Positions 3,268-36,177 of a stretch of 64,000 bases of DNA are shown one piece after another (the first letter of the stretch is position 1; every line of letters starts with the position of its first letter). The DNA is from Candidatus Omnitrophota bacterium. Its GTDB lineage: Bacteria; Omnitrophota; Omnitrophia; Omnitrophales; Aquincolibacteriaceae. The translations under genes were made by a program, and so were the position numbers. The notes under the pieces are model-generated. The model did no database searches, was not told the origin of the DNA, and was given only the letters and a program-made list of their open reading frames with translations. The DNA lies in contig JAFGHI010000021.1 of assembly GCA_016930235.1 (NCBI GenBank), positions 56,810-120,809 of the forward strand, in the 5' to 3' direction.

Positions 3268-3609
3268 CTATAATATATTTTCTCCGGAACTGCCGTCAGG
3301 CAAGAGCATCAAAGGGGGGACCTCTCCGGATTCCATCACCTGAAAGCAATGGCATAGTAGACAGCCCTTCTGAGAGAGGCAAAATTTGTTCGCTGTCTCG
3401 ACAAAAATCTTAAAATCTTCTTTCTTTAATCGGTCATAGGTAGAACACTTATCAAAATACTTACAATTAGAACCTTTTTTATGGATGATCCGGTAAAAAG
3501 GACACTCTTTATACTTCTCACTCGAGCAATAATCAAACGTATCCTGCCGAAGTTGCCCGACCTGACTTTGACATTCGCGAGTGTAATCAACAAACAAAGG
3601 ACACGGCAT
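3268..3609 (-). CDS. cysteine-rich small protein (10 Cys in 113 aa), function unknown
   Basis: A clean ORF immediately upstream of the SOD gene with clustered Cys (for example CLLCHC). I recognise no family for it. Confidence 0.4.
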   Translation of the reverse strand: MPCPLFVDYTRECQSQVGQLRQDTFDYCSSEKYKECPFYRIIHKKGSNCKYFDKCSTYDRLKKEDFKIFVETANKFCLSQKGCLLCHCFQVMESGEVPPLMLLPDGSSGENIL

Positions 3610-4601: not shown

Positions 4602-6341
4602 TCACAATACAGAAGCTTCAATAACCTTTTTCTCGGGTGTAATTGCAACGTCCTGATAGTCTTGATTCTTGGGGTGATTGGCACTTCGGGTCATCAACCA
4701 AATATCGAATATCAAGGCTAAAAATCCAAAGAAGTAGCGAGTTTGCACCCAAATCCGCTTGGCATAAAACGGAATAAAAGATTCCTTGGGCATACCCGGC
4801 CGTCTTTCTCTGCGGTTTTTGATCCGCCAGAATCCTCCGAGTAAAGGATGGACATCCGTAAGAAAGACAGAGGAACAAAACCAAATAAGGGATGCGAAAA
4901 GAAGACGGCGTCTGGGCCCTTTTCTCCTTAATAACAATGTCTTCAAATGCTCCCGGCTGTAAAAAGAATCCCAGGCATCCCGGTAAGCCCGCATCCAATC
5001 TGCATTGGACATACTCGGATGCTGATTGCAGGCATGGGCAGAATCATAAAGGTTGGTATCTTCCGCCATCGGAACTTTCTTTAAATAAAGATCTTGATGA
5101 TCTTTTGAACCCGGTAAAGGCGTCATCACAAAAAACTCCGCCAGATCAAGCGGCAGTTCATGTTTGAGGAAATCAACATCCCGCCTAATCGATTCATAGG
5201 TATCTCCCGGAAAACCGATAATATACCCCGCGCATGTCAGCGCTCCATGGTCCCGCCACTTTTGGAGCATCTCCCTGTAATCCTTCAGCTGATTTTGATG
5301 TTTTCCCGCCGCTTTCAGATTATCCGGATTGACCGATTCCATCCCGATAAAAACCCGCCGGACACCCGCACGCGTCATTTTCTCAATAAAATTGGGAATT
5401 TTATGCGCCACCACATCCGTCTGAATCATCAACGAACAACGAATCCCCTTCTGTTCTTTTAGATAAATGAGCCGGTCCGCAATTGCTTCCCAATCCTTAT
5501 GCCGGGCAAAATTATCGTCTGTAATAAAAATATGTTTGGATCCATTTTTAAAGTTTGTGCGCACGAGTTTCTCAATATCATCGGCATTCCGTCCGCGCAT
5601 CGTATTGCCTTGGATATGGATGATCGTACAAAAGGAACACTTAAAGGGGCAGCCCCGGCCTGCATCAAAACTTGTTTGCCTCTCAAAAAAACGAGACATG
5701 ACCGATTGAGGCAAAATAGGTCCTGGGACATTTTCGAGATTGGGTCTATCTCCGATCAAATCATAAGCGGGTTCTAATCGATTTCGGAAAGCAGCCTCTA
5801 AAAGCTCGCCCCATTTCTCTTCAACCTCGCCTGCTACAAGAGTGATCCCTTGATCCATCGCTTCTTGAAGCCCGCAACCCTTATCGGGCAGCATCGCCAT
5901 CACCCCCGAAACATGAAAACCTCCGATCATGCTCGGAATCCCTTCCGCCTTAAACTCTATAGCCAGATCGACGGCCCGCGCATACTGGTTGGTCTGAACA
6001 CCCACCATACAAGCTATGGCTTTTTCGTTTCTCTTGCGGACACTTTGACATAGCTTACGAACAGGAATCTTCTGTACGGTTTCATCGAAGGTATGGATAA
6101 CGGGTTCAACATTTTCACCCAAAAATCCTTTTTTAAAGACATCCTGAGTCAAGGAATAGAGGCAGGCCAGAGAATTACTGGTGATAATCCCCCATCCCCA
6201 ACGAATGACATACCCCTCGTCATCGTACCGGGAGGGTTTAATCAAGATAATATGAAAACGCTCTTTTGTTTTTGATGGCACAGGAATCTTTCTTGGAAAC
6301 CAGAGAGACTTGAACGGGGAACCCAACAGTTTCTCAGTCAA
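4602..6341 (-). CDS. B12-binding domain radical SAM protein (class B radical SAM; hopanoid/other C-methylase-like)
   Basis: An N-terminal cobalamin-binding-like region is followed by a radical SAM CxxxCxxC motif (CPFKCSFC). The 579-aa size and a hydrophobic C-terminal segment fit this class. Confidence 0.7.
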   Translation of the reverse strand: MTEKLLGSPFKSLWFPRKIPVPSKTKERFHIILIKPSRYDDEGYVIRWGWGIITSNSLACLYSLTQDVFKKGFLGENVEPVIHTFDETVQKIPVRKLCQSVRKRNEKAIACMVGVQTNQYARAVDLAIEFKAEGIPSMIGGFHVSGVMAMLPDKGCGLQEAMDQGITLVAGEVEEKWGELLEAAFRNRLEPAYDLIGDRPNLENVPGPILPQSVMSRFFERQTSFDAGRGCPFKCSFCTIIHIQGNTMRGRNADDIEKLVRTNFKNGSKHIFITDDNFARHKDWEAIADRLIYLKEQKGIRCSLMIQTDVVAHKIPNFIEKMTRAGVRRVFIGMESVNPDNLKAAGKHQNQLKDYREMLQKWRDHGALTCAGYIIGFPGDTYESIRRDVDFLKHELPLDLAEFFVMTPLPGSKDHQDLYLKKVPMAEDTNLYDSAHACNQHPSMSNADWMRAYRDAWDSFYSREHLKTLLLRRKGPRRRLLFASLIWFCSSVFLTDVHPLLGGFWRIKNRRERRPGMPKESFIPFYAKRIWVQTRYFFGFLALIFDIWLMTRSANHPKNQDYQDVAITPEKKVIEASVL

Positions 6342-6591
6342 CTGATCTCATGATTTTGAACTTCCAAATAATTGCTCAGGAATAGACTACCTTAAGAGCC
6401 CCCCGGGTTCAAACAAAAAAGCTGCGCTAAAAGGAGTGTTCTGGGTTCTTAGAATTAGTCCAAAGGCGTCCCCCCCCGGGCACTGTAACTTCAATCACGG
6501 TAAACTCTTTTGCTTGTGCTGGAAGGAATTAAATAATTTGAGGTTTTTTATCCTTTTTTACGTTACAATACCGCCACTTTGGAGCGGCTCT

Positions 6592-7704
6592 ATGGCTAAA
6601 AAAAACGGTCCTTTTCATCAACGCATCATTCTGGGGATTGAGCTGGAGGGTTATACCATCTCAACGCCTGATCACACCATCAGCCGGAAACTTGCTTTTC
6701 ACAGAAAAGGGACCGCTGAGAAAGGGGAAAAATTCAGGAGAGACTGGTCGATCGGAACCGAATATAACAGCCGTCCTTTTTCAACCATTCGCGAAGGTCT
6801 TTTTCTTCTCAAAACAGGCCTGAGAAAATACAATCATAGTTTGTACCGAAGAAAATCACGCAATAAAAAATGCCGGCAAATCTTTCTGGTGGGCGGCTGG
6901 AAAGACCGCTTCGCCGGGGCCCACATTCATTTGTCAGTCGCGAATCGAAAACTGACTTTTGACCAAGCCAGGAAGTTGGCGGCTCACATTCACGATCATA
7001 TACCGCTCCTCATCGCCATTTCCGCCAACTCACCCGTCTGGCAAGATAAGATTACACAAATCGCTTCCAACCGTGTCCTCAAAGGAAGTAAAACCTATTT
7101 TCAACCCATTCACCGCGGCCATTTATCGCATAAACAATTCGATGAGATCACCTTGAACCGGGCAACAAAGACAAAACCACCTACCCTCGAATGCCGGGTC
7201 ATGGATTCCAATATCCCCGAAATCATCATGATTTGCGCATGCATCATCAAGGCATGCGCCCTCGGTTATCTTCGGGGTAAAAAAATCTCGAATAAAATCA
7301 GCCACTTCCGCTTTTTAAAAAGCCGCGTCGATGCGGCCAAAAACGGAATGGATGCAAAACTTTCTTGGAATCACGATTGGCTGTCGGCCGCAAAATATCT
7401 GGACCGCTTTGTCTGGACTTACCGGCAAGAATTCCGGGAAATGGATATCCCTCAGGAGATATGGGCAGCCATGAAACTCTTAAAAAGGGGTCTGAACGGA
7501 AGTGAAATTATCCGCCACTGCGCCGAAAAAGCGTATCGAAAGCATCCTCAGACATGGAAAAAGCGACTCGCCAAAAAATATATCCAAGCAATCAATACCC
7601 TTCTTGAAGGAAATTCTTCGAAAGATTTTGTCCATCAAATGGGCATCACCATACCCAACATTTCGAGAGTCTGGCTTGGGAGAAAAAAACTCAAACTGTT
7701 ATGA
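6592..7704 (+). CDS. YbdK-like carboxylate-amine ligase (GCS2 / gamma-glutamyl:cysteine ligase family 2)
   Basis: ILGIELEGY matches the YbdK GIELE motif, and AHIHLSV, LLIAISANSPVW and LECRVMDSN match the YbdK HVHVG, ALSAASPY and EVRVMDTP blocks. The start is set at MAKKNGP (6592), which has a GGAG Shine-Dalgarno. The ORF-track start at 6436 lacks one. Confidence 0.6.
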   Translation: MAKKNGPFHQRIILGIELEGYTISTPDHTISRKLAFHRKGTAEKGEKFRRDWSIGTEYNSRPFSTIREGLFLLKTGLRKYNHSLYRRKSRNKKCRQIFLVGGWKDRFAGAHIHLSVANRKLTFDQARKLAAHIHDHIPLLIAISANSPVWQDKITQIASNRVLKGSKTYFQPIHRGHLSHKQFDEITLNRATKTKPPTLECRVMDSNIPEIIMICACIIKACALGYLRGKKISNKISHFRFLKSRVDAAKNGMDAKLSWNHDWLSAAKYLDRFVWTYRQEFREMDIPQEIWAAMKLLKRGLNGSEIIRHCAEKAYRKHPQTWKKRLAKKYIQAINTLLEGNSSKDFVHQMGITIPNISRVWLGRKKLKLL

Positions 7705-8450
7705 AAAAACGCGAACCCTTTATTGGAATCACCTGTGATATCCAGCACTACAAACGTATGAAACCGCCTTATTATGAACTTGTCTGCGATTACCGCTACC
7801 CTCAAGCCGTCAAACAAGCGGGCGGCTACCCGATCCTATTACCCATGGCCTTCGGAGAAAAGATCATTCATCGTTACCTGGATCAAATGGATGGTATCAT
7901 TATCGTTGGCGGAGACGATGTTGATCCTAAACTCTATGGCGAGAAAAAAAAACGGGGCACGGGAACTGTCCCAAAACCAAGGATTAAATTTGAATGTAAG
8001 CTCTATGAGGAGGCCAAAAGAAGAAAGCTCCCTGTCATGGGAATTTGCTATGGCATGCAGCTGATTAATGTGCTGGAAGGCGGCTCCCTCTTCCAGGATA
8101 TCCGGCGGGATGCAAGATCACGGTTAAACCATCGCAACAAAAAAAATCCACATATCCCAGTGACCATTGATCCAACTTCACGGCTTGGGAAAATTATCGG
8201 TAAAAGGCGCATCATTGCCCACTGTGAACATCACCAAGCAGTCAGTACGGTAGCGCCCTCTTTTAAACCCGTCGCCTTTGCCTCCGACAATATTATTGAG
8301 GCCATCGAAAGCCGATCGAAAAAGATCCTGGCGATCCAATGGCATCCTGAAAGACTTTTTCGGGCGCCTTCGACACGGAGACTCTTCCGCGCCTTTGTAA
8401 TGATGTGCAGGAAAAAGACGAAAAAAGCAAAACGCAGAAGAAGACGGTAA
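7701..8450 (+). CDS. class I glutamine amidotransferase-like gamma-glutamyl hydrolase (PuuD / peptidase C26 family)
   Basis: The catalytic Cys sits in GICYGMQL and the His in IQWHPE. The start overlaps the ligase stop in an ATGA motif. Confidence 0.7.
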   Translation: MKKREPFIGITCDIQHYKRMKPPYYELVCDYRYPQAVKQAGGYPILLPMAFGEKIIHRYLDQMDGIIIVGGDDVDPKLYGEKKKRGTGTVPKPRIKFECKLYEEAKRRKLPVMGICYGMQLINVLEGGSLFQDIRRDARSRLNHRNKKNPHIPVTIDPTSRLGKIIGKRRIIAHCEHHQAVSTVAPSFKPVAFASDNIIEAIESRSKKILAIQWHPERLFRAPSTRRLFRAFVMMCRKKTKKAKRRRRR

Positions 8451-8477: not shown

Positions 8478-9170
8478 TTAAGCCCGGCCGAACATACGCC
8501 TGATCTTCGCAACCATTCTTTCTTTGGTAAAACGCTCTCTTTCGCGGCGAAACCTCTTCTTGGCTTGTTCCTTCAAATGCCAAAGAGGCCAATAATACCG
8601 CATAAAAATAATCGAGGAACGACGTTTCAAGAGAACGGCGTAAAGTTTATGATCTGCAATTTGTTTTTCGGTAAATCCCTTGGGCTTTCGGGCAAAGAGA
8701 AAAACGCCCGGTTCCATGGGGTCCTTTTCCAATCTCTCGATCTTGAGATCGGAAAAAATATGCCGGGCATCTTCTATGTCATACCGCCAAAAATCATAGG
8801 GATAACCGTGATAGGCAAATCCTTCGGAACGGGTCGTCACGACAAGGCAGCCTTCGGGTTTGAGGAGTGCTTTCAGATTATGCACAATGAGCTGCCAATC
8901 AAGAACATGTTCCAGCATTTCGGTGCAAATCACCATATCAAAACGGTTTTCACCGTATTGTTTCAAAAGGTCTTCGGCACGGCATATCTCGTCCACACCG
9001 GGCCCCTGGGTAATATCAACTCCAAGGTAGGAACTGGGATGAAACGCCTGGGCGATCGGCCTGAAAGACCCGTTAACATCATAAGCGCCTACTTCAATGA
9101 CAGATTTGCCTTCGATATCTTCCCTTCGGAGTATGGTCTGACCAAATTCAAGGCAACTGGGATGGCACAC
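8478..9170 (-). CDS. class I SAM-dependent methyltransferase
   Basis: It has a Rossmann motif I (VIEVGAYDVNG) and motif II (MVICTEMLEHV). Confidence 0.6.
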   Translation of the reverse strand: MCHPSCLEFGQTILRREDIEGKSVIEVGAYDVNGSFRPIAQAFHPSSYLGVDITQGPGVDEICRAEDLLKQYGENRFDMVICTEMLEHVLDWQLIVHNLKALLKPEGCLVVTTRSEGFAYHGYPYDFWRYDIEDARHIFSDLKIERLEKDPMEPGVFLFARKPKGFTEKQIADHKLYAVLLKRRSSIIFMRYYWPLWHLKEQAKKRFRRERERFTKERMVAKIRRMFGRA

Positions 9171-29003: not shown

Positions 29004-30472
29004 ACGATCACTCCTCCGGCTACACGGCCTGCTTCCAAAAGCAGCTTCTGGAAGGGGCCCGGGATGTAAAAACCCATCACGAAGATCACGATCAAGCCGA
29101 TGTCGAGAACACTGTCCATCAAGAAACTTTTTTCTGATGCCGGAGACTCCTCCGAAGCGCCAAAAGTCATCCCATTGGCGTGCCTCAAAAAACCGATAAA
29201 GATAAGCGCTAGTAAAACGAGCAAGAAGACGCAAGGAATAAATTTCCCGGCCAGGAATCCTGCGCTTAAAATAAGGAATTCGCTGACAAAAATGCTGAAC
29301 GGCGGCATCCCGGCAATGGCCAAGACACCTAAGAAGAAAATGATGCCCAAAAACGGGTTTTCCAGGAAGATCCCTTTTATCTTACCGATCTCTTTGGTCT
29401 TAAAAAGATAAAGCAGATGCCCGCAACTAAAAAAAAGCATGGATTTTGTGAATGCGTGGTTCACGATGTGAAGGATCGCTGCGTAGGCCCCGAACGCGCC
29501 GCCAAAACCCAGTCCCACGGCCGCAAGTCCCATATGCTCGACACTGGAATAAGCCAGAAGACGTTTATAATCTTTTTGCTCCAGGATAAACGGCGTTGCA
29601 ACAGCAACAGAAAGAACTCCAAATAAAATGAGGAGCGTCCCTGAGAATGCGGATCCAGTCGCAGCTGTGGTCAGAATGTGGAACCTCAGTATTCCCAAAG
29701 TTGCACAGCTTAAAAGCACGCCGGAAAGAAGTGCACTCACGGGGGCTGGAGCCTGGCTGTGCGCATCCGGAAGCCAGGAATGGAACGGCGCGAGACCCGC
29801 TTTGGTTCCGTAACCCACCAGAATAAAAATAAAAGCAAGACGGATAATCTGTGGATCTAACTGTCCGGCCCTGCTCAAAAGGAAGGTCCAATTCAGTAAA
29901 AAAACGTTCTCTCCCGCGCTCACTTGAGCGATCGCCGAATAATAGACCAGGATGATCCCGAAAAGCGCGAGCGCAATCCCGACGCTGCAAAGAATCAGGT
30001 ATTTCCATGCGGCCTCGATCGAACTTTTCTTGTCATCTACGTTGACCAGGAACGCTGAAGCTAGCGTCGTTCCCTCGATCGCGATCCACATAATGCCAAG
30101 ATTATTGGAAAAAACGGTCAAAAGCATGGTGAAAAGGAAAAGATGGAAAAAGAAAGCATACCGTCGAAGCCTTAAAGAAGAGATGCTTGAATCTCCTTCT
30201 TTGAAAAGATATCCCCCCGCATAGACGGCCGAAAGCATTCCTACGCTCGTGATCAGAAGCACAAAGACCGCGGACAGCGAATCCATCATGAGATTCCCGC
30301 TAAAAGCGAACACACGGGGCGACCAGTAAACCCCAAAAACAAAGAGCCATGCTCCGATCGCGGAAAGCACGGCGCCGGTCGTGAACGTCAGTCGCGTCAT
30401 CCTCTTAGGGCAAGGGATCAAACAAAGAAACGCAAAAATAAGGGGCATCCAAAGGACCCTGTCGATCGTCAT
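29000..30472 (-). CDS. antiporter-like membrane subunit (NuoN/HyfF/MnhD family)
   Basis: A 490-aa protein with about 14 TM helices and the conserved blocks AWKYLIL and GLAPFHSWLPDAH. Confidence 0.75.
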   Translation of the reverse strand: MTIDRVLWMPLIFAFLCLIPCPKRMTRLTFTTGAVLSAIGAWLFVFGVYWSPRVFAFSGNLMMDSLSAVFVLLITSVGMLSAVYAGGYLFKEGDSSISSLRLRRYAFFFHLFLFTMLLTVFSNNLGIMWIAIEGTTLASAFLVNVDDKKSSIEAAWKYLILCSVGIALALFGIILVYYSAIAQVSAGENVFLLNWTFLLSRAGQLDPQIIRLAFIFILVGYGTKAGLAPFHSWLPDAHSQAPAPVSALLSGVLLSCATLGILRFHILTTAATGSAFSGTLLILFGVLSVAVATPFILEQKDYKRLLAYSSVEHMGLAAVGLGFGGAFGAYAAILHIVNHAFTKSMLFFSCGHLLYLFKTKEIGKIKGIFLENPFLGIIFFLGVLAIAGMPPFSIFVSEFLILSAGFLAGKFIPCVFLLVLLALIFIGFLRHANGMTFGASEESPASEKSFLMDSVLDIGLIVIFVMGFYIPGPFQKLLLEAGRVAGGVIV

Positions 30473-30476
30473 CGTA

Positions 30477-31136
30477 TTATCCTTTCAAAACGGTCATATC
30501 GTCCGCGTCGATACTTTCAAAAGCATCGCGGATCTTAAAAACAAAAATTCCCATAATCATCGCAGCGACCAACACGTCGAAAAAGATTCCCATCTCGACC
30601 AAAAGCGGCATGCCGAAGGTCATAGTGACAGCCATTAAAAAAAGACCGTTCTCAATTAGAAGCAGGCCGAGAACCTGACTGATCGCTTTTTTCCGGGTCG
30701 TCATCATTAACATGCCGAAAAAGACGGTCGAGACAGCAAGCGGAATGAACTCACTAAAGGCAACCGGTTTCAGGATCTTGCCATCTCCCGTGACATAAAA
30801 CGAAATAAACACAAGCAGAACAGCCAAAAGAAGTGAAAAGGGAATGTTGAAACAACTTTCGACCTCTTTGCGAATCCCGAGCCGCCGGATGATCCTAAAA
30901 AAAACTTGCGGGATCACGATCGTTTTCAGAATAAGCGTCAAAATCGCAGGGACCAACAGATGCTCGACATGGTTCGTGACCGCAATCACCGCAGTAATAA
31001 GCGCGAGTAGGAAAGAGTGCGTTGCGTAGGCACGGATACACGTCCCTATCCGGGAAGACGCGAGGATCCAGAAAGAAGCAATCAGAAGAACCATCCCAAA
31101 AAAATGAATCAGCGAAGCCGCGAGTTCCGGACTCAT
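30477..31136 (-). CDS. HyfE-like small membrane subunit (hydrogenase-4 component E family)
   Basis: A 219-aa protein with 6-7 TM helices. Its position and size match hyfE. Confidence 0.55.
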   Translation of the reverse strand: MSPELAASLIHFFGMVLLIASFWILASSRIGTCIRAYATHSFLLALITAVIAVTNHVEHLLVPAILTLILKTIVIPQVFFRIIRRLGIRKEVESCFNIPFSLLLAVLLVFISFYVTGDGKILKPVAFSEFIPLAVSTVFFGMLMMTTRKKAISQVLGLLLIENGLFLMAVTMTFGMPLLVEMGIFFDVLVAAMIMGIFVFKIRDAFESIDADDMTVLKG

Positions 31137-32083
31137 ACTCCCCTCCCGATCATCAGTTGCCCCAGAAGAGAAAGGATGGCCAGAACAAAAGCCACCGCCA
31201 GAAGGTCCGGGACCCTAAAAAGACGCAATTTCGCAGAATGGATCTCAATCCACCCGATAACAAACGCCAGAAAAAAGACTTTCGCGAGGTAAAGAACCAG
31301 CGACAATCCAAAAGCCAGCGGGTCCCACGAACCCGCAATCCCCCAGGGGAAAAAAAGATCCGACAAGAGTGTCAAAAATACCAGCTGTTTAATCTGATGG
31401 CTCCATTCAATCAGGGCCAGATACCGTCCGGAATATTCAAGGATCATGGCCTCGTGAACCATTGTCAGCTCCAGGTGTGTTGCCGGATTATCCACAGGGA
31501 TCCTTCCACTTTCCGCGATTGTTACGATCAGCAGTGCTCCGAAAGCAAGGCTCGTAAAAAAAAGCATCTGTGTGGGCGATCCGGAAGCGAAATATGAAAC
31601 AATCCCTTCCAGGGACAACGTGTGGGCGCAAAAACCCAAAGAGAAAAAAGCGAGCAGAAGCGCCGGCTCCGCAAGTGACGAAAGCGTCATCTCCCGACTT
31701 GAACCCATACCACCGAACGTAGTGCCAGTGTCCAATGCCGCAAGCGCTAAAAAGAAACGGCCCAAAGCCAGGAGGTAAACAAAGAGGATCACATCCCCCG
31801 TAAAACCAAAAAGAGAACGTATACCTAAAACCGGCAGCATCGAAGCCGCCGCAAAAGTTGACACAAAAAGGACGAAAGGCATGGCATGAAAGATCCAGGA
31901 CGCCGTTTCCGAGATTACCATGTTCTTCCGGAATAATTTCAGTAGATCCGAATAGACCTGGATCAAGCTCGGCCCCACGCGGTTCTGCGAAGCCGCTTTC
32001 ATTTTTTTGATGAACCAGCTAAGCGCAGGCGCCAAAATCGCCAGGAACAAAAGTTGGATAACGGACAAAAGGATCGCCAGCAT
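31133..32083 (-). CDS. NuoH/HyfC/HycD-like membrane subunit
   Basis: A 316-aa protein with 8 TM helices and the NuoH-like blocks RVGPSLIQVYSDLLKL and EYSGRYLALIEW. Confidence 0.7.
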   Translation of the reverse strand: MLAILLSVIQLLFLAILAPALSWFIKKMKAASQNRVGPSLIQVYSDLLKLFRKNMVISETASWIFHAMPFVLFVSTFAAASMLPVLGIRSLFGFTGDVILFVYLLALGRFFLALAALDTGTTFGGMGSSREMTLSSLAEPALLLAFFSLGFCAHTLSLEGIVSYFASGSPTQMLFFTSLAFGALLIVTIAESGRIPVDNPATHLELTMVHEAMILEYSGRYLALIEWSHQIKQLVFLTLLSDLFFPWGIAGSWDPLAFGLSLVLYLAKVFFLAFVIGWIEIHSAKLRLFRVPDLLAVAFVLAILSLLGQLMIGRGV

Positions 32084-34110
32084 CAGGAACGCCCTCCGAA
32101 GAAAAAAAGCAGAAGGATCAGCGTAATAAAAATATAGCTTAAATAAAGCTGGATGTGCCCTGTCTGAATCTGCTTGGCCTTCCGGGATAGAACAGCAACA
32201 AACTCTGACAAAGGTTTATAAACCCATTCATCCACGTGATGCGTAATCTTTGACTCAAAACGCTGTGCAGTCCTGAGCATTGCATGACCTTCATCTTCCA
32301 ACTCCACACGGCGGGTCGGTTGATAGAGAAATGAAAAGATCCGGCGTAAAGGCTTGGAATAACCTGTGGCTGTATACTGCATACGCGGTTCAAGTCCCGG
32401 CATCCCGCAATCCCAGCTGGGACAGATGCGGACAATCTTTTTTCCAAGCAACACCCGCAAAAAGATTACGGCCCCGACCAAAAATGCCGAAAGGATCAAA
32501 GCGATAAGAACCGGGGAAAACTGGCTTGACTCTGAGGGGGATATCAAAAAGGATTTCCGAACCATGGCTCCCATCGGAATATCCGTGCCGGATAAAGTTT
32601 TTGCCACTTTCCCAAGAATAGGCACAATCCATGGAGCCGCCAGGGCCAACCCAAAACAACTCGCGGCCAGGATCCCCATTCCAGCTTTCATGGATCCGCT
32701 CACTTCATGCGCGTGGGCGGCCTGCTCAGAACGGGGCTTCCCTAAAAAGCTGATGCCAAAAGCCTTCACAAAACAGGTGGCCGCCAAAGCACCCGCAAGC
32801 CCAAGAAGCGCGGCTAAAAGCGGTGAAAAAAAACGCAGGGCCGGGCTCGCACCTTCGCATCCCAGCAGAAGCACGATAAAAGTCAGCCATTCGCTCACAA
32901 ATCCATTGAGAGGGGGTAACGCCGAAATCGCAGCCGAACCGATGAAAAAACAAGCGGCCGTCCAGGGCATGTTCCGTATCAAGCCGCCCAAACGCTCGAT
33001 ATCTTTTATGTGGGTGCCAGAAAGAATGGAACCCGCGCCAAGAAAGAGCAGCCCTTTGAAAGTTGCGTGATTTATTACATGATAAAGGGCGGCAATCAGG
33101 GCGAAGGAAGCGTAGAAGGGCTTCTTCGCGGAAGAAAAAACAAGCGCCATTCCAACGCCCAGCAGAATGATCCCGATGTTTTCGATGCTGTGAAAAGCAA
33201 GAAGCCGTTTGAGATCATGTTCCATCAAGGCATAGAGAACACCGAGCAGCGTTGAAAAAATCGCAACCGCAAGCACCGCGGATCCCCACCACGCGGGTAT
33301 CGCGCCAAGAAAGTTAAAAAGGAACAGAAGCAACCCGTAGATCGCCGTTTTGATCATGACTCCTGACATGAGCGCCGAGACATGGCTTGATGCCTGCGGA
33401 TGAGCCTGGGGCAACCAGATGTGAAGCGGGATCACGCCGGCTTTGGTCCCAAATCCGATGAACGCCGCGAGAAAAATAACGTTTTTAAGAACAGGCGGCA
33501 GCGTAACCGCAGCTCCTCTGAATGCATCGAATGAAAAAGAGCCCGCATGGATGTAAAGAAGCAGGAATGCGGCGGTAATAAAAGCGGTCCCCACATGCGT
33601 CATGATCAGGTAAAGCCTCCCGGCAGACAGGGCTTCGGGTCTTTCATGTTCAAAGATCACGAGAAAATAGGACGTAAGAGACATGATCTCCCAAAAAAGG
33701 AGAAAATAGAAAGCATTTTGCACTGTGACCACGAACAGCATCGCAAGAATGAAAAAATTATAGAAGAACCCCAGAAGCGCTATGCTCTTCCTCCCCTGAA
33801 ATTCCCGGGTATAACCGATGGCGAACAGAGAAGCAGCCAATGAAAGAAAAGAAATAATAAGAAGAAAGAAGGCTGAAAAGGGTCCCGCCACGAAGCGTAA
33901 AGCGCCTACCGGGAAACTCCCCTGCAATTCCAGGACCCAGGATCCTCCCGTGAAAAGGATGCCAAGCGAAAAGAGGATGCCCAACGCGCTCGCCAGAACA
34001 GCCAAGCCATGCGTCACGCGGTTCGCTTTTTCTCCGTGTTGTTCAAAAAGAAAACCCGCGATCCCTCCCAATATATGCAGCAACACCTGAACAAAAAATA
34101 ATAATTCCAT
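32083..34110 (-). CDS. NuoL/HyfB/MnhA-like antiporter-like membrane subunit
   Basis: A 675-aa protein with about 16 TM helices and the blocks GVIPLHIWLPQAHP and HATFKGLLF. It is the first gene of the operon. Confidence 0.75.
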   Translation of the reverse strand: MELLFFVQVLLHILGGIAGFLFEQHGEKANRVTHGLAVLASALGILFSLGILFTGGSWVLELQGSFPVGALRFVAGPFSAFFLLIISFLSLAASLFAIGYTREFQGRKSIALLGFFYNFFILAMLFVVTVQNAFYFLLFWEIMSLTSYFLVIFEHERPEALSAGRLYLIMTHVGTAFITAAFLLLYIHAGSFSFDAFRGAAVTLPPVLKNVIFLAAFIGFGTKAGVIPLHIWLPQAHPQASSHVSALMSGVMIKTAIYGLLLFLFNFLGAIPAWWGSAVLAVAIFSTLLGVLYALMEHDLKRLLAFHSIENIGIILLGVGMALVFSSAKKPFYASFALIAALYHVINHATFKGLLFLGAGSILSGTHIKDIERLGGLIRNMPWTAACFFIGSAAISALPPLNGFVSEWLTFIVLLLGCEGASPALRFFSPLLAALLGLAGALAATCFVKAFGISFLGKPRSEQAAHAHEVSGSMKAGMGILAASCFGLALAAPWIVPILGKVAKTLSGTDIPMGAMVRKSFLISPSESSQFSPVLIALILSAFLVGAVIFLRVLLGKKIVRICPSWDCGMPGLEPRMQYTATGYSKPLRRIFSFLYQPTRRVELEDEGHAMLRTAQRFESKITHHVDEWVYKPLSEFVAVLSRKAKQIQTGHIQLYLSYIFITLILLLFFFGGRS

Positions 34111-34416: not shown

Positions 34417-34489
34417 CTCCCCCGCCTGGGCTCGAACCAGGGACAAAGCGGTTAACAGCCGCTTGCTCTACCAACTGAGCTACAGGGGA
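34417..34489 (-). tRNA. tRNA-Asn (anticodon GUU)
   Basis: The minus strand reads TCCCCTGTAGCTCAGTTGGTAGAGCAAGCGGCTGTTAACCGCTTTGTCCCTGGTTCGAGCCCAGGCGGGGGAG. It folds as a cloverleaf with a 7-bp acceptor stem, a CTGTTAA anticodon loop and a TTCGAGC T-loop. The 3' CCA is not encoded. Confidence 0.85.
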
Positions 34490-34866: not shown

Positions 34867-36177
34867 ATGAATTATTGGGTAAAAATAGTATTCAGCTTAT
34901 TGATTCTAATTCCATTATTATGCTCTCCGTCGTCATTCGCCGCTGCGGTGAGTCCTGAGATGTTTGCGGTCAACAATACTTGGATGCTTGTCGCAACGTT
35001 TCTTGTATTTATCATGCATTTAGGATTTGCGACTCTTGAGACAGGATTGACGCGTTCAAAAAACACTGTCAACATCCTTTTCAAAAACACCCTGATCGTA
35101 GCCATTGGAATCCTCACCTATGCGCTTATGGGATTCAATCTCATGTATCCGGGTGAATTTTCCTTGGGTCAATTTTTCGGGTTTGCAGGCTTCGGTATCG
35201 GAACCGATGCCGCCGGCCTTACCAGTGCTTATAACGAGGGGTATACGTATTGGACGGATTTTATGTTTCAGGCCATGTTCGCTGCTACCGCAGCAACCAT
35301 TGTCTCGGGGGCAGTCGCTGAGCGGGTGAAACTCCACAGTTTCCTTATCTTTTCAACGATCTATGTTGCCATTATCTATCCCTTGGTTGGTTCTTGGAAA
35401 TGGGGGGGCGGATGGCTGGATGAGATGGGCTTTTATGATTTTGCAGGTTCCACACTCGTTCATTCCGTCGGGGGATGGGGGGCGTTAGCTGGCGTTCTGC
35501 TACTCGGCCCTCGATTCGGAAAATACGTCAATGAGAACATCAACCCCATTATGGGCCATAGCATGCCGCTTGCAACGATCGGAGTCTTTCTTCTATGGTT
35601 GGGTTGGTTTGGCTTCAACGGAGGTTCGGTTTTATCGGCCAACCCCGGAATGGTATCTTTTGTTTTTGCCACAACCACCCTCGCCGCCGCCGCAGGCATT
35701 GTAGGAGCGATGTTTACAAGCTGGTCGATTCAAAAAAAACCTGATTTATCCATGGTCTTAAACGGTTGCCTGGCGGGGCTTGTCGGTATTACTGCGGGAG
35801 CCGATACGGTTTCAATCGCATCCTCCGTTATCATTGGATTCTTTGCCGGTATCCTGGTCGTTCTTTCGGTGATCTTGATCGACCGTATCCGGATCGATGA
35901 CCCGGTGGGTGCTATTTCCGTCCATTTAGTCTGCGGAATTTGGGGCACTCTTGCCGTCGGAATCTTTAGCACCAACCCGGAACACAGCTTCGGAGTACAA
36001 CTAATCGGTGTTTTGGCAGCCGGGGCAATGTGTTTTACCAGTGCATTTCTCATTTTTGGCCTGTTAAAACTAACTTTAGGTATCCGTGTCAGCCAGGACG
36101 AAGAACTCCGCGGTTTGGATGTGGGAGAACATGGTATGGAAGCCTATAACGGTTTTCAAATTTTCACAACACAATAG
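34867..36177 (+). CDS. amtB: ammonium transporter
   Basis: A signal peptide is followed by 11 TM helices with the Amt blocks DFAGSTLVHSVGGW and LGWFGFNGGS. An AAAGGAG Shine-Dalgarno is present. Confidence 0.9.
   Translation: MNYWVKIVFSLLILIPLLCSPSSFAAAVSPEMFAVNNTWMLVATFLVFIMHLGFATLETGLTRSKNTVNILFKNTLIVAIGILTYALMGFNLMYPGEFSLGQFFGFAGFGIGTDAAGLTSAYNEGYTYWTDFMFQAMFAATAATIVSGAVAERVKLHSFLIFSTIYVAIIYPLVGSWKWGGGWLDEMGFYDFAGSTLVHSVGGWGALAGVLLLGPRFGKYVNENINPIMGHSMPLATIGVFLLWLGWFGFNGGSVLSANPGMVSFVFATTTLAAAAGIVGAMFTSWSIQKKPDLSMVLNGCLAGLVGITAGADTVSIASSVIIGFFAGILVVLSVILIDRIRIDDPVGAISVHLVCGIWGTLAVGIFSTNPEHSFGVQLIGVLAAGAMCFTSAFLIFGLLKLTLGIRVSQDEELRGLDVGEHGMEAYNGFQIFTTQ

Follow-up and report, generated by a model that had tools for sequence, protein, structure and literature searches.

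A conserved gene pair encoding a YbdK-like carboxylate-amine ligase and a C26-type hydrolase in Candidatus Omnitrophota and other bacterial phyla

The gene pair and its products

A stretch of 64,000 nucleotides from a Candidatus Omnitrophota bacterium (contig JAFGHI010000021.1, positions 56,810 to 120,809; hereafter the window, position 1 being its first letter) carries two overlapping genes, one for a putative carboxylate-amine ligase, the other for a hydrolase of the Peptidase_C26 family (hereafter C26). The cassette measures 1.86 kb. The ligase open reading frame (ORF) runs on the forward strand from the ATG at 6592 to the TGA at 7704 and encodes 370 aa; the C26 ORF runs on the same strand from the ATG at 7701 to the stop at 8450 and encodes 249 aa. 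Both ORFs, and their overlap in an ATGA motif, had been reported in a preliminary description of the window, and were read again directly from the sequence; the motifs quoted there (GIELE, HxH, RVMD, GICYGMQ, WHPE) are all found on translation. The ligase ORF can be extended in frame to a GTG at 6436. The ATG at 6592 was preferred as start because of a GGAG motif 7 nt upstream, and because the starts of the homologues fall near this position. The junction sequence, CTGTTATGAAAA, contains the ATGA overlap of ligase stop and C26 start, by which the two genes are predicted to be translationally coupled. A scan of the locus for promoters and terminators gave nothing exceeding the shuffled expectation. 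The window ligase is identical to entry P0001, by annotation a hypothetical protein, from a Candidatus Omnitrophica metagenome-assembled genome (MAG), and the C26 protein is 100% identical to an entry from a Candidatus Omnitrophica MAG. The features of the cassette, all on the forward strand, are the following.

6581..6584, +: GGAG ribosome-binding site, read from the sequence, 7 nt 5' of the ligase ATG
6592..7704, +: ligase gene, for a carboxylate-amine ligase of the glutamine synthetase/gamma-glutamylcysteine synthetase (GS/GCS) fold (ORF, Pfam GCS2, AlphaFold2 model, Foldseek)
6634..6648, +: GIELE, the GhExE metal/ATP signature (G15, E17, E19), invariant in 27 homologues and aligned with GIELE of YbdK
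6688..6750, +: loop, residues 33-53 (KLAFHRKGTAEKGEKFRRDWS), strongly conserved, low model confidence
6922..6930, +: HIH, active-site HxH block (H111, H113), invariant and aligned with HVH of YbdK
7189..7206, +: ECRVMD, active-site ExRxxD block (E200, R202, D205), invariant and aligned with EVRVMD of YbdK
7701..7704, +: ATGA, overlap of ligase stop and C26 start, read from the sequence
7701..8450, +: Peptidase_C26 gene of the PuuD/SpuA/Lin1909 type (Pfam PF07722, PDB sequence matches, AlphaFold2 model)
8046..8048, +: codon of the nucleophile Cys116, within GICYGMQ, invariant in 23 partner proteins
8343..8351, +: His215-Pro-Glu217, within QWHPE, invariant and aligned with QWHPE of Lin1909 and SpuA

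The ligase had been called YbdK-like in the preliminary description, a designation which holds for fold and active-site motifs, not for family membership. GCS2 (PF04107) was the only Pfam family matched at E ≤ 0.1, with 28.2 bits (cut-off 21) over residues 106-161 only. The YbdK subfamily model TIGR02050 gave 39.4 bits (cut-off 176.4), the YbdK equivalog NF010040 26 bits (cut-off 425), and the glutamate-cysteine ligase (GCL) models PRK13517 and PRK13518 19–36 bits (cut-offs 332–437). Scores for all NCBIfam YbdK and GCL models range from 19 to 39 bits, against cut-offs of 176 to 437; the cut-off over most of the YbdK/GCS2 model is missed, as is that of the housekeeping GCL equivalog. A grouping with housekeeping GCLs, which was to speak against the earlier proposal, was thus not observed. 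When a profile made from 27 homologues was compared with PDB sequences, YbdK was found at E values of 0.2–0.4 only, and the blocks aligned were the catalytic ones.

Structural comparisons are more telling. The AlphaFold2 model of the ligase (predicted local distance difference test score, pLDDT, 86; predicted template modelling score, pTM, 0.88) has its best Foldseek match in the PDB in YbdK (1r8g from E. coli, 1tt4 for the Salmonella homologue; E 3e-11, template modelling (TM) score 0.60–0.66, 18–19% identity), a GCS2-family protein of similar size with weak gamma-Glu-Cys ligase activity. Dop and PafA come next (TM 0.48–0.57, 10–12% identity), followed by plant and E. coli gamma-glutamylcysteine ligases and by glutamine synthetases. 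All the 50 matches listed are YbdK, GCL, PafA/Dop or GS proteins, and GatB is not among these best 50.

Four blocks are invariant in the 27 ligase sequences, G15/E17/E19, H111/H113, N146-S147-P148 and E200/R202/D205; they correspond to the GhExE, HxH, (A/N)SP and ExRxxD blocks which the window ligase has in common with YbdK. The GhExE signature has been described as diagnostic of a superfamily, that of carboxylate-amine/ammonia ligases (Iyer, Burroughs and Aravind 2008, PMC2588565), and both this signature and the GS/GCS three-dimensional fold are found in the window ligase. Because the catalytic blocks are invariant across the family, the protein appears to be catalytically competent, as an ATP/Mg-dependent carboxylate-amine ligase. 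The family alignment contains 85 invariant columns, and members from different phyla are about 50% identical. Residues 33-53 are modelled with pLDDT <50, yet G40, E43, G45, E46, F48, R50 and D51 are invariant; this loop may be a mobile active-site lid or an interface. Both the loop and a conserved C-terminal helical region are unlike YbdK in the alignment.

To size the family, 1.84 billion representative proteins were searched exhaustively with a profile; 118 matched at E ≤ 1e-3, and 27 of them at E ≤ 1e-30. Full-length members score at least 205 bits, the next proteins at most 67 bits. When nine of the latter were compared with Pfam, five gave just weak GCS2 matches and four gave none. P0291, a distant relative, weakly matches COOH-NH2_lig (PF14395; 22 bits), a match not seen with the window ligase. 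Members are currently annotated as 'hypothetical' or 'glutamate-cysteine ligase family' only. The ligases make up a small, sharply bounded, uncharacterised family, YbdK-like by fold and motifs only; it is a separate orphan family, outside the YbdK and GCL families.

The second gene had been described as encoding a PuuD-like hydrolase of the class-I amidotransferase type with catalytic Cys and His, in agreement with what was found. Peptidase_C26 (PF07722) matches the product with 189.4 bits (cut-off 20.5, E 1e-55) over model positions 1-219 of 219. The closest PDB sequences are Lin1909 (3fij, E 4e-37), SpuA (7d4r, E 1e-21) and PuuD (6vtv, E 1e-18). The AlphaFold2 model (pLDDT 92.6) superimposes on PuuD (6vtv) and SpuA (7d50) with TM scores of 0.85–0.87 and root-mean-square deviations of about 2.2–2.5 Å; TM scores to glutaminase subunits or domains are 0.55–0.67 (about 0.6 for GuaA-A and TrpG). 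1l9x and 4l7q are also among the structural matches. The 23 partner sequences all keep the triad C116/H215/E217 and an HHQ block, and Cys116 and QWHPE align with the nucleophile and triad motifs of Lin1909 and SpuA. The full-length profile match, the Cys-His-Glu triad and the PuuD/SpuA-type architecture identify the protein as a predicted PuuD/SpuA-type class-I amidotransferase-like hydrolase. By the NCBIfam cut-off it is not a PuuD orthologue, as the PuuD equivalog NF008471 (gamma-glutamyl-gamma-aminobutyrate hydrolase) scores 79.3 bits against a cut-off of 266.

Conservation and variants of the pair

A genome scan, made on one genome per species, returned 78 loci. The 64 loci listed ahead of a Thermoproteota-type block include 63 bacterial loci and L056, from a Woesearchaeota archaeon, which is devoid of C26. 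In 55 of these 64 a C26 homologue lies directly downstream of the ligase gene on the same strand, and among the nine loci where this is not so, at least two (L012, L060) stop at a contig edge. Absence of the neighbourhood from other genomes had been named in the preliminary description as an argument against its proposal; the adjacency was found across phyla. Another 76 loci came from a scan of metagenomes, and agree with this picture of adjacency. Overall, 94 of 165 loci contain a strong C26 match, the remainder being mostly archaeal or truncated. The pair was found in at least six bacterial phyla: Omnitrophota, Nitrospirota, Planctomycetota, Elusimicrobiota, Acidobacteriota and Thermodesulfobacteriota.

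Of 60 loci scored, 55 show an overlap of ligase stop and C26 start, which measures 4 nt in 19 of them and 8 nt in 36. The pairwise distance matrices of ligase and C26 are correlated, with r = 0.97 over 52 pairs and r = 0.90 over 27 non-redundant ones, and none of 2000 permutations reached the observed correlations. The pairing of ligase and C26 is far beyond chance. Ligase and C26 trees feature the same three clades, each of them mixing phyla; Omnitrophota, Elusimicrobiota and Acidobacteriota are each present in two clades. Since both trees show the same phylum-mixing clades, the cassette has probably moved horizontally as a unit. Long ORFs suggestive of ligase-C26 gene fusions in the high-GC loci L002, L003 and L018 were discarded, the tblastn matches being in different reading frames.

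Archaeal members differ in their surroundings. In Thermoproteota- and Brockarchaeota-type loci (36–42% identity) the ligase gene is found without C26, in a fixed order of genes for ribonucleotide reductase (RNR), CobA, the ligase and DNA ligase. This synteny was considered as a clue to B12 salvage, and was left as speculation, as the loci come from one close lineage in which neighbours are 82–96% identical. The RNR encoded upstream of the ligase (L066-L068, L072, L073; for example 1014-4811 in L072) is of class II and measures either about 870 or about 1266 aa; the long form carries an insertion between ...NPC/VSGDT... and ...HNC/GEEP... that resembles an intein.

A further clade, from Asgard archaea (Helarchaeota, Promethearchaeota) and Bathyarchaeota (33–45% identity), features an N-terminal CPxC...CPxC zinc ribbon of about 45–65 aa fused to the ligase domain (P0247, P0249, P0250, P0252, P0255; L084-L089). 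The ribbon is missing from all bacterial members. In three related Asgard loci a stand-alone gene for a class-II, N-terminal nucleophile (Ntn), amidotransferase-like protein lies just downstream of the ligase gene in convergent orientation (L084 8271-8948, L085 8299-8973, L087 6417-7118, all on the minus strand). The product measures about 225–233 aa, has an N-terminal Cys, and is much closer to the GlmS N-domain model (154 bits) than to that of EgtC (24 bits). Three other loci of the zinc-ribbon clade are devoid of this gene. PGK is upstream in all three loci carrying the class-II gene, and the arrangement may be simply inherited synteny.

One bacterial locus, L139, on a sediment-type metagenome contig, has no C26. 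A gene for a classical class-I glutamine amidotransferase of 212 aa (1161-1799, +) resides instead upstream of the ligase gene (1784-2896), overlapping its start by 16 nt. The protein resembles GuaA subunit A (83 bits), with Cys in GICFGHQ and the His-x-Glu motif in QFHAE.

Possible functions of the pair

Tentatively, we favour as quite possible a function in which the ligase makes a gamma-glutamyl amide and the C26 protein cleaves one, as in PuuA/PuuD or AtdA1/AtdA2. Enzymes of the same fold phosphorylate a carboxylate, usually the glutamyl gamma-carboxylate, and then couple an amine or ammonia to it (PMC2588565). Class-I amidotransferase and C26 enzymes have a common P1 gamma-glutamyl specificity, and cleave via a thioester (PMC12958103). 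A bond of this type is what ligases of the GS fold produce (PMC2588565). The ligase would activate a carboxylate as acyl-phosphate by using ATP and Mg2+; by analogy with nearly all enzymes of the same fold, glutamate or a glutamyl moiety most likely provides this group, in the form of its gamma-carboxylate. Coupling to an amine would yield the gamma-glutamyl amide. The C26 thiol amidohydrolase would cut the gamma-glutamyl-N bond through a Cys116 thioester, releasing glutamate. In this way a small amine, amino acid or short peptide would gain a gamma-glutamyl group through the one enzyme and lose it through the other. The hydrolase would act either on a processed derivative, as in the logic of PuuA/PuuD and EgtA/EgtC, or on the product of the ligase itself, serving as a safety valve, as in that of AtdA1/AtdA2.

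We infer a make-and-remove function because C26 is a stand-alone hydrolase of the PuuD/SpuA type, and because recurrent neighbours of the pair are peptide-type enzymes; the latter, peptide ligases and peptidases, point to small amino-acid or peptide substrates. Likewise, we infer that glutamate would be the acyl donor, which kind of amine may be accepted, and that both enzymes would act on the same compound. What the analysis does show are the folds of both proteins, their intact catalytic residues, and the conservation of coupling and joint inheritance.

ATP-dependent gamma-glutamylation combined with an amidotransferase-like hydrolase is a recurring mode of amine handling in bacteria, serving polyamines, ethanolamine and arylamines. 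To our knowledge, the characterised ligase/hydrolase cases of amine handling all use GS-type ligases. PuuA/PuuD and PauA/SpuA resemble the window pair in that an ATP-dependent gamma-glutamyl-amine ligase works with a C26 hydrolase. In contrast to the window ligase, PuuA and PauA are GS-type dodecamers, and their pathway needs a nearby-encoded oxidase and dehydrogenase; no oxidase or aldehyde dehydrogenase of the Puu/Pau type is conserved beside the pair across the contexts examined. In the ergothioneine system, the GCS2-family ligase EgtA installs a gamma-glutamyl group, which is later removed by the stand-alone amidotransferase-like hydrolase EgtC. EgtC differs from the window partner, a class-I C26 protein, as it is a class-II (Ntn) enzyme, clustered with the required EgtB and EgtD, neither of which is present at the pair. 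AtdA1/AtdA2 and NpaA1/NpaA2, which function in the degradation of aniline and 1-naphthylamine, respectively, are also encoded by adjacent ligase and amidotransferase-like hydrolase genes, and there the hydrolase reverses the ligase reaction, limiting a toxic intermediate (PMC11335346). Their GS-like ligase, however, sits in an operon with a product-consuming Rieske dioxygenase, and no consuming enzyme is linked to the window pair.

A comparative-genomic prediction of ligase/peptidase pairs had been invoked in the preliminary description. The same predicted logic is found in Iyer 2008 (PMC2588565), where GCS2-sized ligases called 'new CAL' neighbour an amidotransferase-like thiol peptidase or a gamma-glutamyl cyclotransferase, and have been proposed to make glutathione-like peptides or metabolites. 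That prediction concerns, however, a different ligase family (CJD_1902 of Clostridium perfringens is an example) of different phyletic range, the window ligase matching GCS2 only in Pfam. No paper characterising the ligase-C26 pair was found in full-text searches, as anticipated in the earlier account. The partnership of a gamma-glutamyl ligase with an amidotransferase-like hydrolase is known; what is new is the ligase scaffold. Here the partnership rests on a separate, uncharacterised branch of YbdK-like ligases, exchanged among poorly studied phyla. Identity of the substrate would give a function to the family; either a small gamma-glutamyl metabolite, new for nitrite oxidisers and candidate phyla, or an amidotransferase of new architecture could come to light. 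The cassette is small, self-contained and easy to express.

Several observations weigh against the make-and-remove function. The pair has no conserved neighbour that could serve as a 'middle' enzyme, such as an oxidase or a dehydrogenase. As no consuming enzyme is linked, a bare ligase and hydrolase acting on one compound would form a futile, ATP-burning cycle, which would have to be avoided through unlinked genes or regulation. A strict overlap of 4 or 8 nt, maintained across phyla, typifies the subunits of a single enzyme more than separate steps of a pathway. About 10 bacterial lineages and all the Thermoproteota-type loci have the ligase without a hydrolase nearby. Finally, the partners are of the GuaA type in one bacterial locus and GlmS-N-like in three Asgard loci, and the best-known role of such domains is ammonia supply.

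The same observations bear on a rather doubtful alternative, in which ligase and C26 would be two subunits of one glutamine-dependent amidotransferase. C26 would hydrolyse glutamine and pass ammonia to the ATP-activating ligase (net: R-COOH + Gln + ATP -> R-CONH2 + Glu + ADP + Pi), following the logic of GatCAB or MurT/GatD with a YbdK-like synthetase subunit. In GatCAB, GatDE and MurT/GatD an ATP-dependent carboxylate-activating protein and a separate glutaminase are likewise encoded by adjacent, often overlapping genes; their glutaminases belong, in contrast, to the amidase, asparaginase or CobQ-type families. The stop/start overlap in 55 of 60 loci across phyla and the co-evolution of the proteins (r 0.90–0.97) are as expected of subunits, and the autonomy of the cassette, which lacks any further conserved neighbour, is in keeping with one complete enzyme. 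GatB and GatE, whose glutaminase is a separate subunit, have been placed in the same ligase superfamily (Iyer 2008, PMC2588565). Three non-orthologous partners are found beside the ligase family (C26, the GuaA-subunit-A-like protein of L139 and the GlmS-N-like class-II protein of the three Asgard loci), and the partnerless archaeal ligases could use free ammonia. The dominant partner is, however, a stand-alone hydrolase of the PuuD/SpuA type (TM 0.85–0.87) rather than a glutaminase subunit, and we know of no PF07722-type protein that serves as an ammonia-channelling subunit. The GuaA-type partner comes from a single locus, and the Asgard class-II gene, convergent and not co-transcribed, from three related genomes with shared synteny only. 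Stand-alone amidotransferase-like proteins can also be gamma-glutamyl peptidases; EgtC is one of class II. GGP1 is a class-I example (PMC12958103).

A broader version of this idea is unlikely as well. The ligase would be the synthetase subunit of a new amidotransferase of YbdK/GS fold, fed with ammonia by interchangeable glutaminases (C26, GuaA-type, GlmS-N-type), and would amidate a widely available carboxylate; in the archaeal zinc-ribbon ligases this carboxylate may be on a macromolecule. The testable parts of the preliminary description are all supported, with two refinements: the ligase is assigned to an orphan family, and an amidotransferase is considered alongside the make-and-remove function.

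Reversible modification of a protein, peptide or cofactor is improbable. The ligase would attach a glutamyl-type isopeptide or amide, in the style of PafA-Pup or of poly-gamma-glutamyl tailing, and C26 would erase or trim it, in the style of Dop or of gamma-glutamyl hydrolase. Dop and PafA rank directly behind YbdK in the fold comparison, share the fold superfamily of the ligase, and follow a ligase/eraser logic on a glutamyl gamma-carboxylate; TM scores to them are just 0.48–0.57, however, and no PafA/Dop family match was obtained in Pfam or NCBIfam (E ≤ 0.1). In PafA/Dop, moreover, the eraser is a ligase paralogue, whereas the window eraser would be a C26 thiol hydrolase. Eukaryotic C26 enzymes trim poly-gamma-glutamate tails, and a write/erase pair, requiring no further enzyme, fits the autonomous cassette. 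The unusual conservation of the ligase (about 50% identity between phyla, 85 invariant columns), including the flexible loop, would suit a modification system, as would the zinc ribbon of Asgard and Bathyarchaeota ligases, since such modules often bind proteins or nucleic acids; the ribbon is not found, however, in any bacterial member. Searches near the pair identified no Pup-like or precursor-peptide ORF, no other conserved small ORF adjoining it, and no proteasome genes; the only recurrent small upstream ORF encodes a YtxH-like protein, in Nitrospirales only. The finding of the pair is robust and taxonomically broad, and would be conceptually surprising only if an amidotransferase or a macromolecular target were involved.

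An ordinary housekeeping gamma-glutamylcysteine ligase, supplying a glutathione or gamma-Glu-Cys pool and paired with C26 as the corresponding peptidase, is scarcely credible: true gamma-Glu-Cys ligases exist in the YbdK family, to judge from NCBIfam names, and the plant class-I amidotransferase-like peptidase GGP1 degrades glutathione (PMC12958103), but GCL/YbdK equivalog scores stay at 19–39 bits (cut-offs 176–437), YbdK appears only at E 0.2–0.4 in the profile search of PDB sequences, the family is isolated and very small (27 representatives out of 1.84 billion proteins reach E ≤ 1e-30), and no gshB-like gene is linked to the pair in the contexts examined.

Neighbouring genes and other features of the window

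Clustering of all the neighbouring ORFs revealed nothing besides ligase and C26 conserved across phyla. A convergent methyltransferase gene, mentioned in the preliminary description, is present downstream of the window pair (8478-9170, -; Methyltransf_23, E 2e-11), and is not conserved beside the pair elsewhere. The same applies to a radical S-adenosylmethionine (radical-SAM) protein gene at 4602-6341 (-), so neither was retained as part of the system. The radical-SAM and methyltransferase genes of the window are not homologous to a radical-SAM/methyltransferase fusion encoded downstream of the pair in L079. The 579-aa radical-SAM protein, encoded divergently from the ligase gene, has a hydrophobic C-terminal tail; the closest NCBIfam models are those of B12-binding radical-SAM methyltransferases, all far under cut-off (PhpK, 69 versus 600 bits).

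Some neighbours recur within lineages. Ddl-like ATP-grasp ligases are encoded near the pair in L009, L027, L038 and L039, the L039 copy being fused to an M20 peptidase. Among Thermodesulfobacteriota, a KamA-like aminomutase is found in L009 and L027, and a DmpA/S58 peptidase in L009 and related metagenome contigs. The gene for an S15 peptidase overlaps the C26 stop in L080, and transglutaminase-like proteins are encoded near the pair in Phycisphaerae. These lineage-limited peptide ligases and peptidases hint at amino-acid or short-peptide chemistry, and define no pathway. In L009 (254-5963) and L027 (2484-5847), as in L101, L102, L104 and L159, the cassette follows genes for the KamA-like radical-SAM aminomutase and for a tandem double Ddl-like ATP-grasp ligase, in what looks like an uncharacterised beta-amino-acid peptide cluster. 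The KamA-like protein scores 478 bits on the lysine 2,3-aminomutase model (AblA) and 418 bits on the glutamate model, both below cut-offs. Its higher score on the lysine model leaves unsupported the idea of a glutamate 2,3-aminomutase, and with it that of beta-glutamine.

Other genes are restricted further. A histidine kinase and a sigma-54 regulator encoded downstream of the pair are conserved only within Nitrospirales, and were set aside as partners. A gene for a 77-aa YtxH-like small membrane protein lies on the same strand about 700 nt upstream of the ligase gene in L010-L033 and related Nitrospirales, where it is conserved; the unrelated L079 also has a YtxH gene upstream, on the opposite strand. 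A 91-aa ORF in L082 encodes a Cys-rich, lipoprotein-like sequence. An origin from a defence system or a phage was discarded, as neither protein has a PADLOC match and no relatives were found on viral contigs.

Away from the cassette, a 113-aa Cys-rich ORF with several CxxC-like pairs is located at 3268-3609 (-), between genes for a superoxide dismutase and a phosphoglycerate mutase; it has no match in Pfam or NCBIfam. Window positions 26505-34110 (-) encode a membrane module resembling complex I and group-4 [NiFe]-hydrogenases; its subunits include a 30-kDa/49-kDa fusion bearing a NiFe-hydrogenase signature, one of 20 kDa that contains ferredoxin domains, and others that are antiporter-like. 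The module is followed by a tRNA gene (34417-34489, -) and an ammonium transporter gene (34867-36177, +). Over this whole block GC content is raised (about 0.50) and AT skew reaches 0.31, the skew being probably explained by membrane-protein coding bias.

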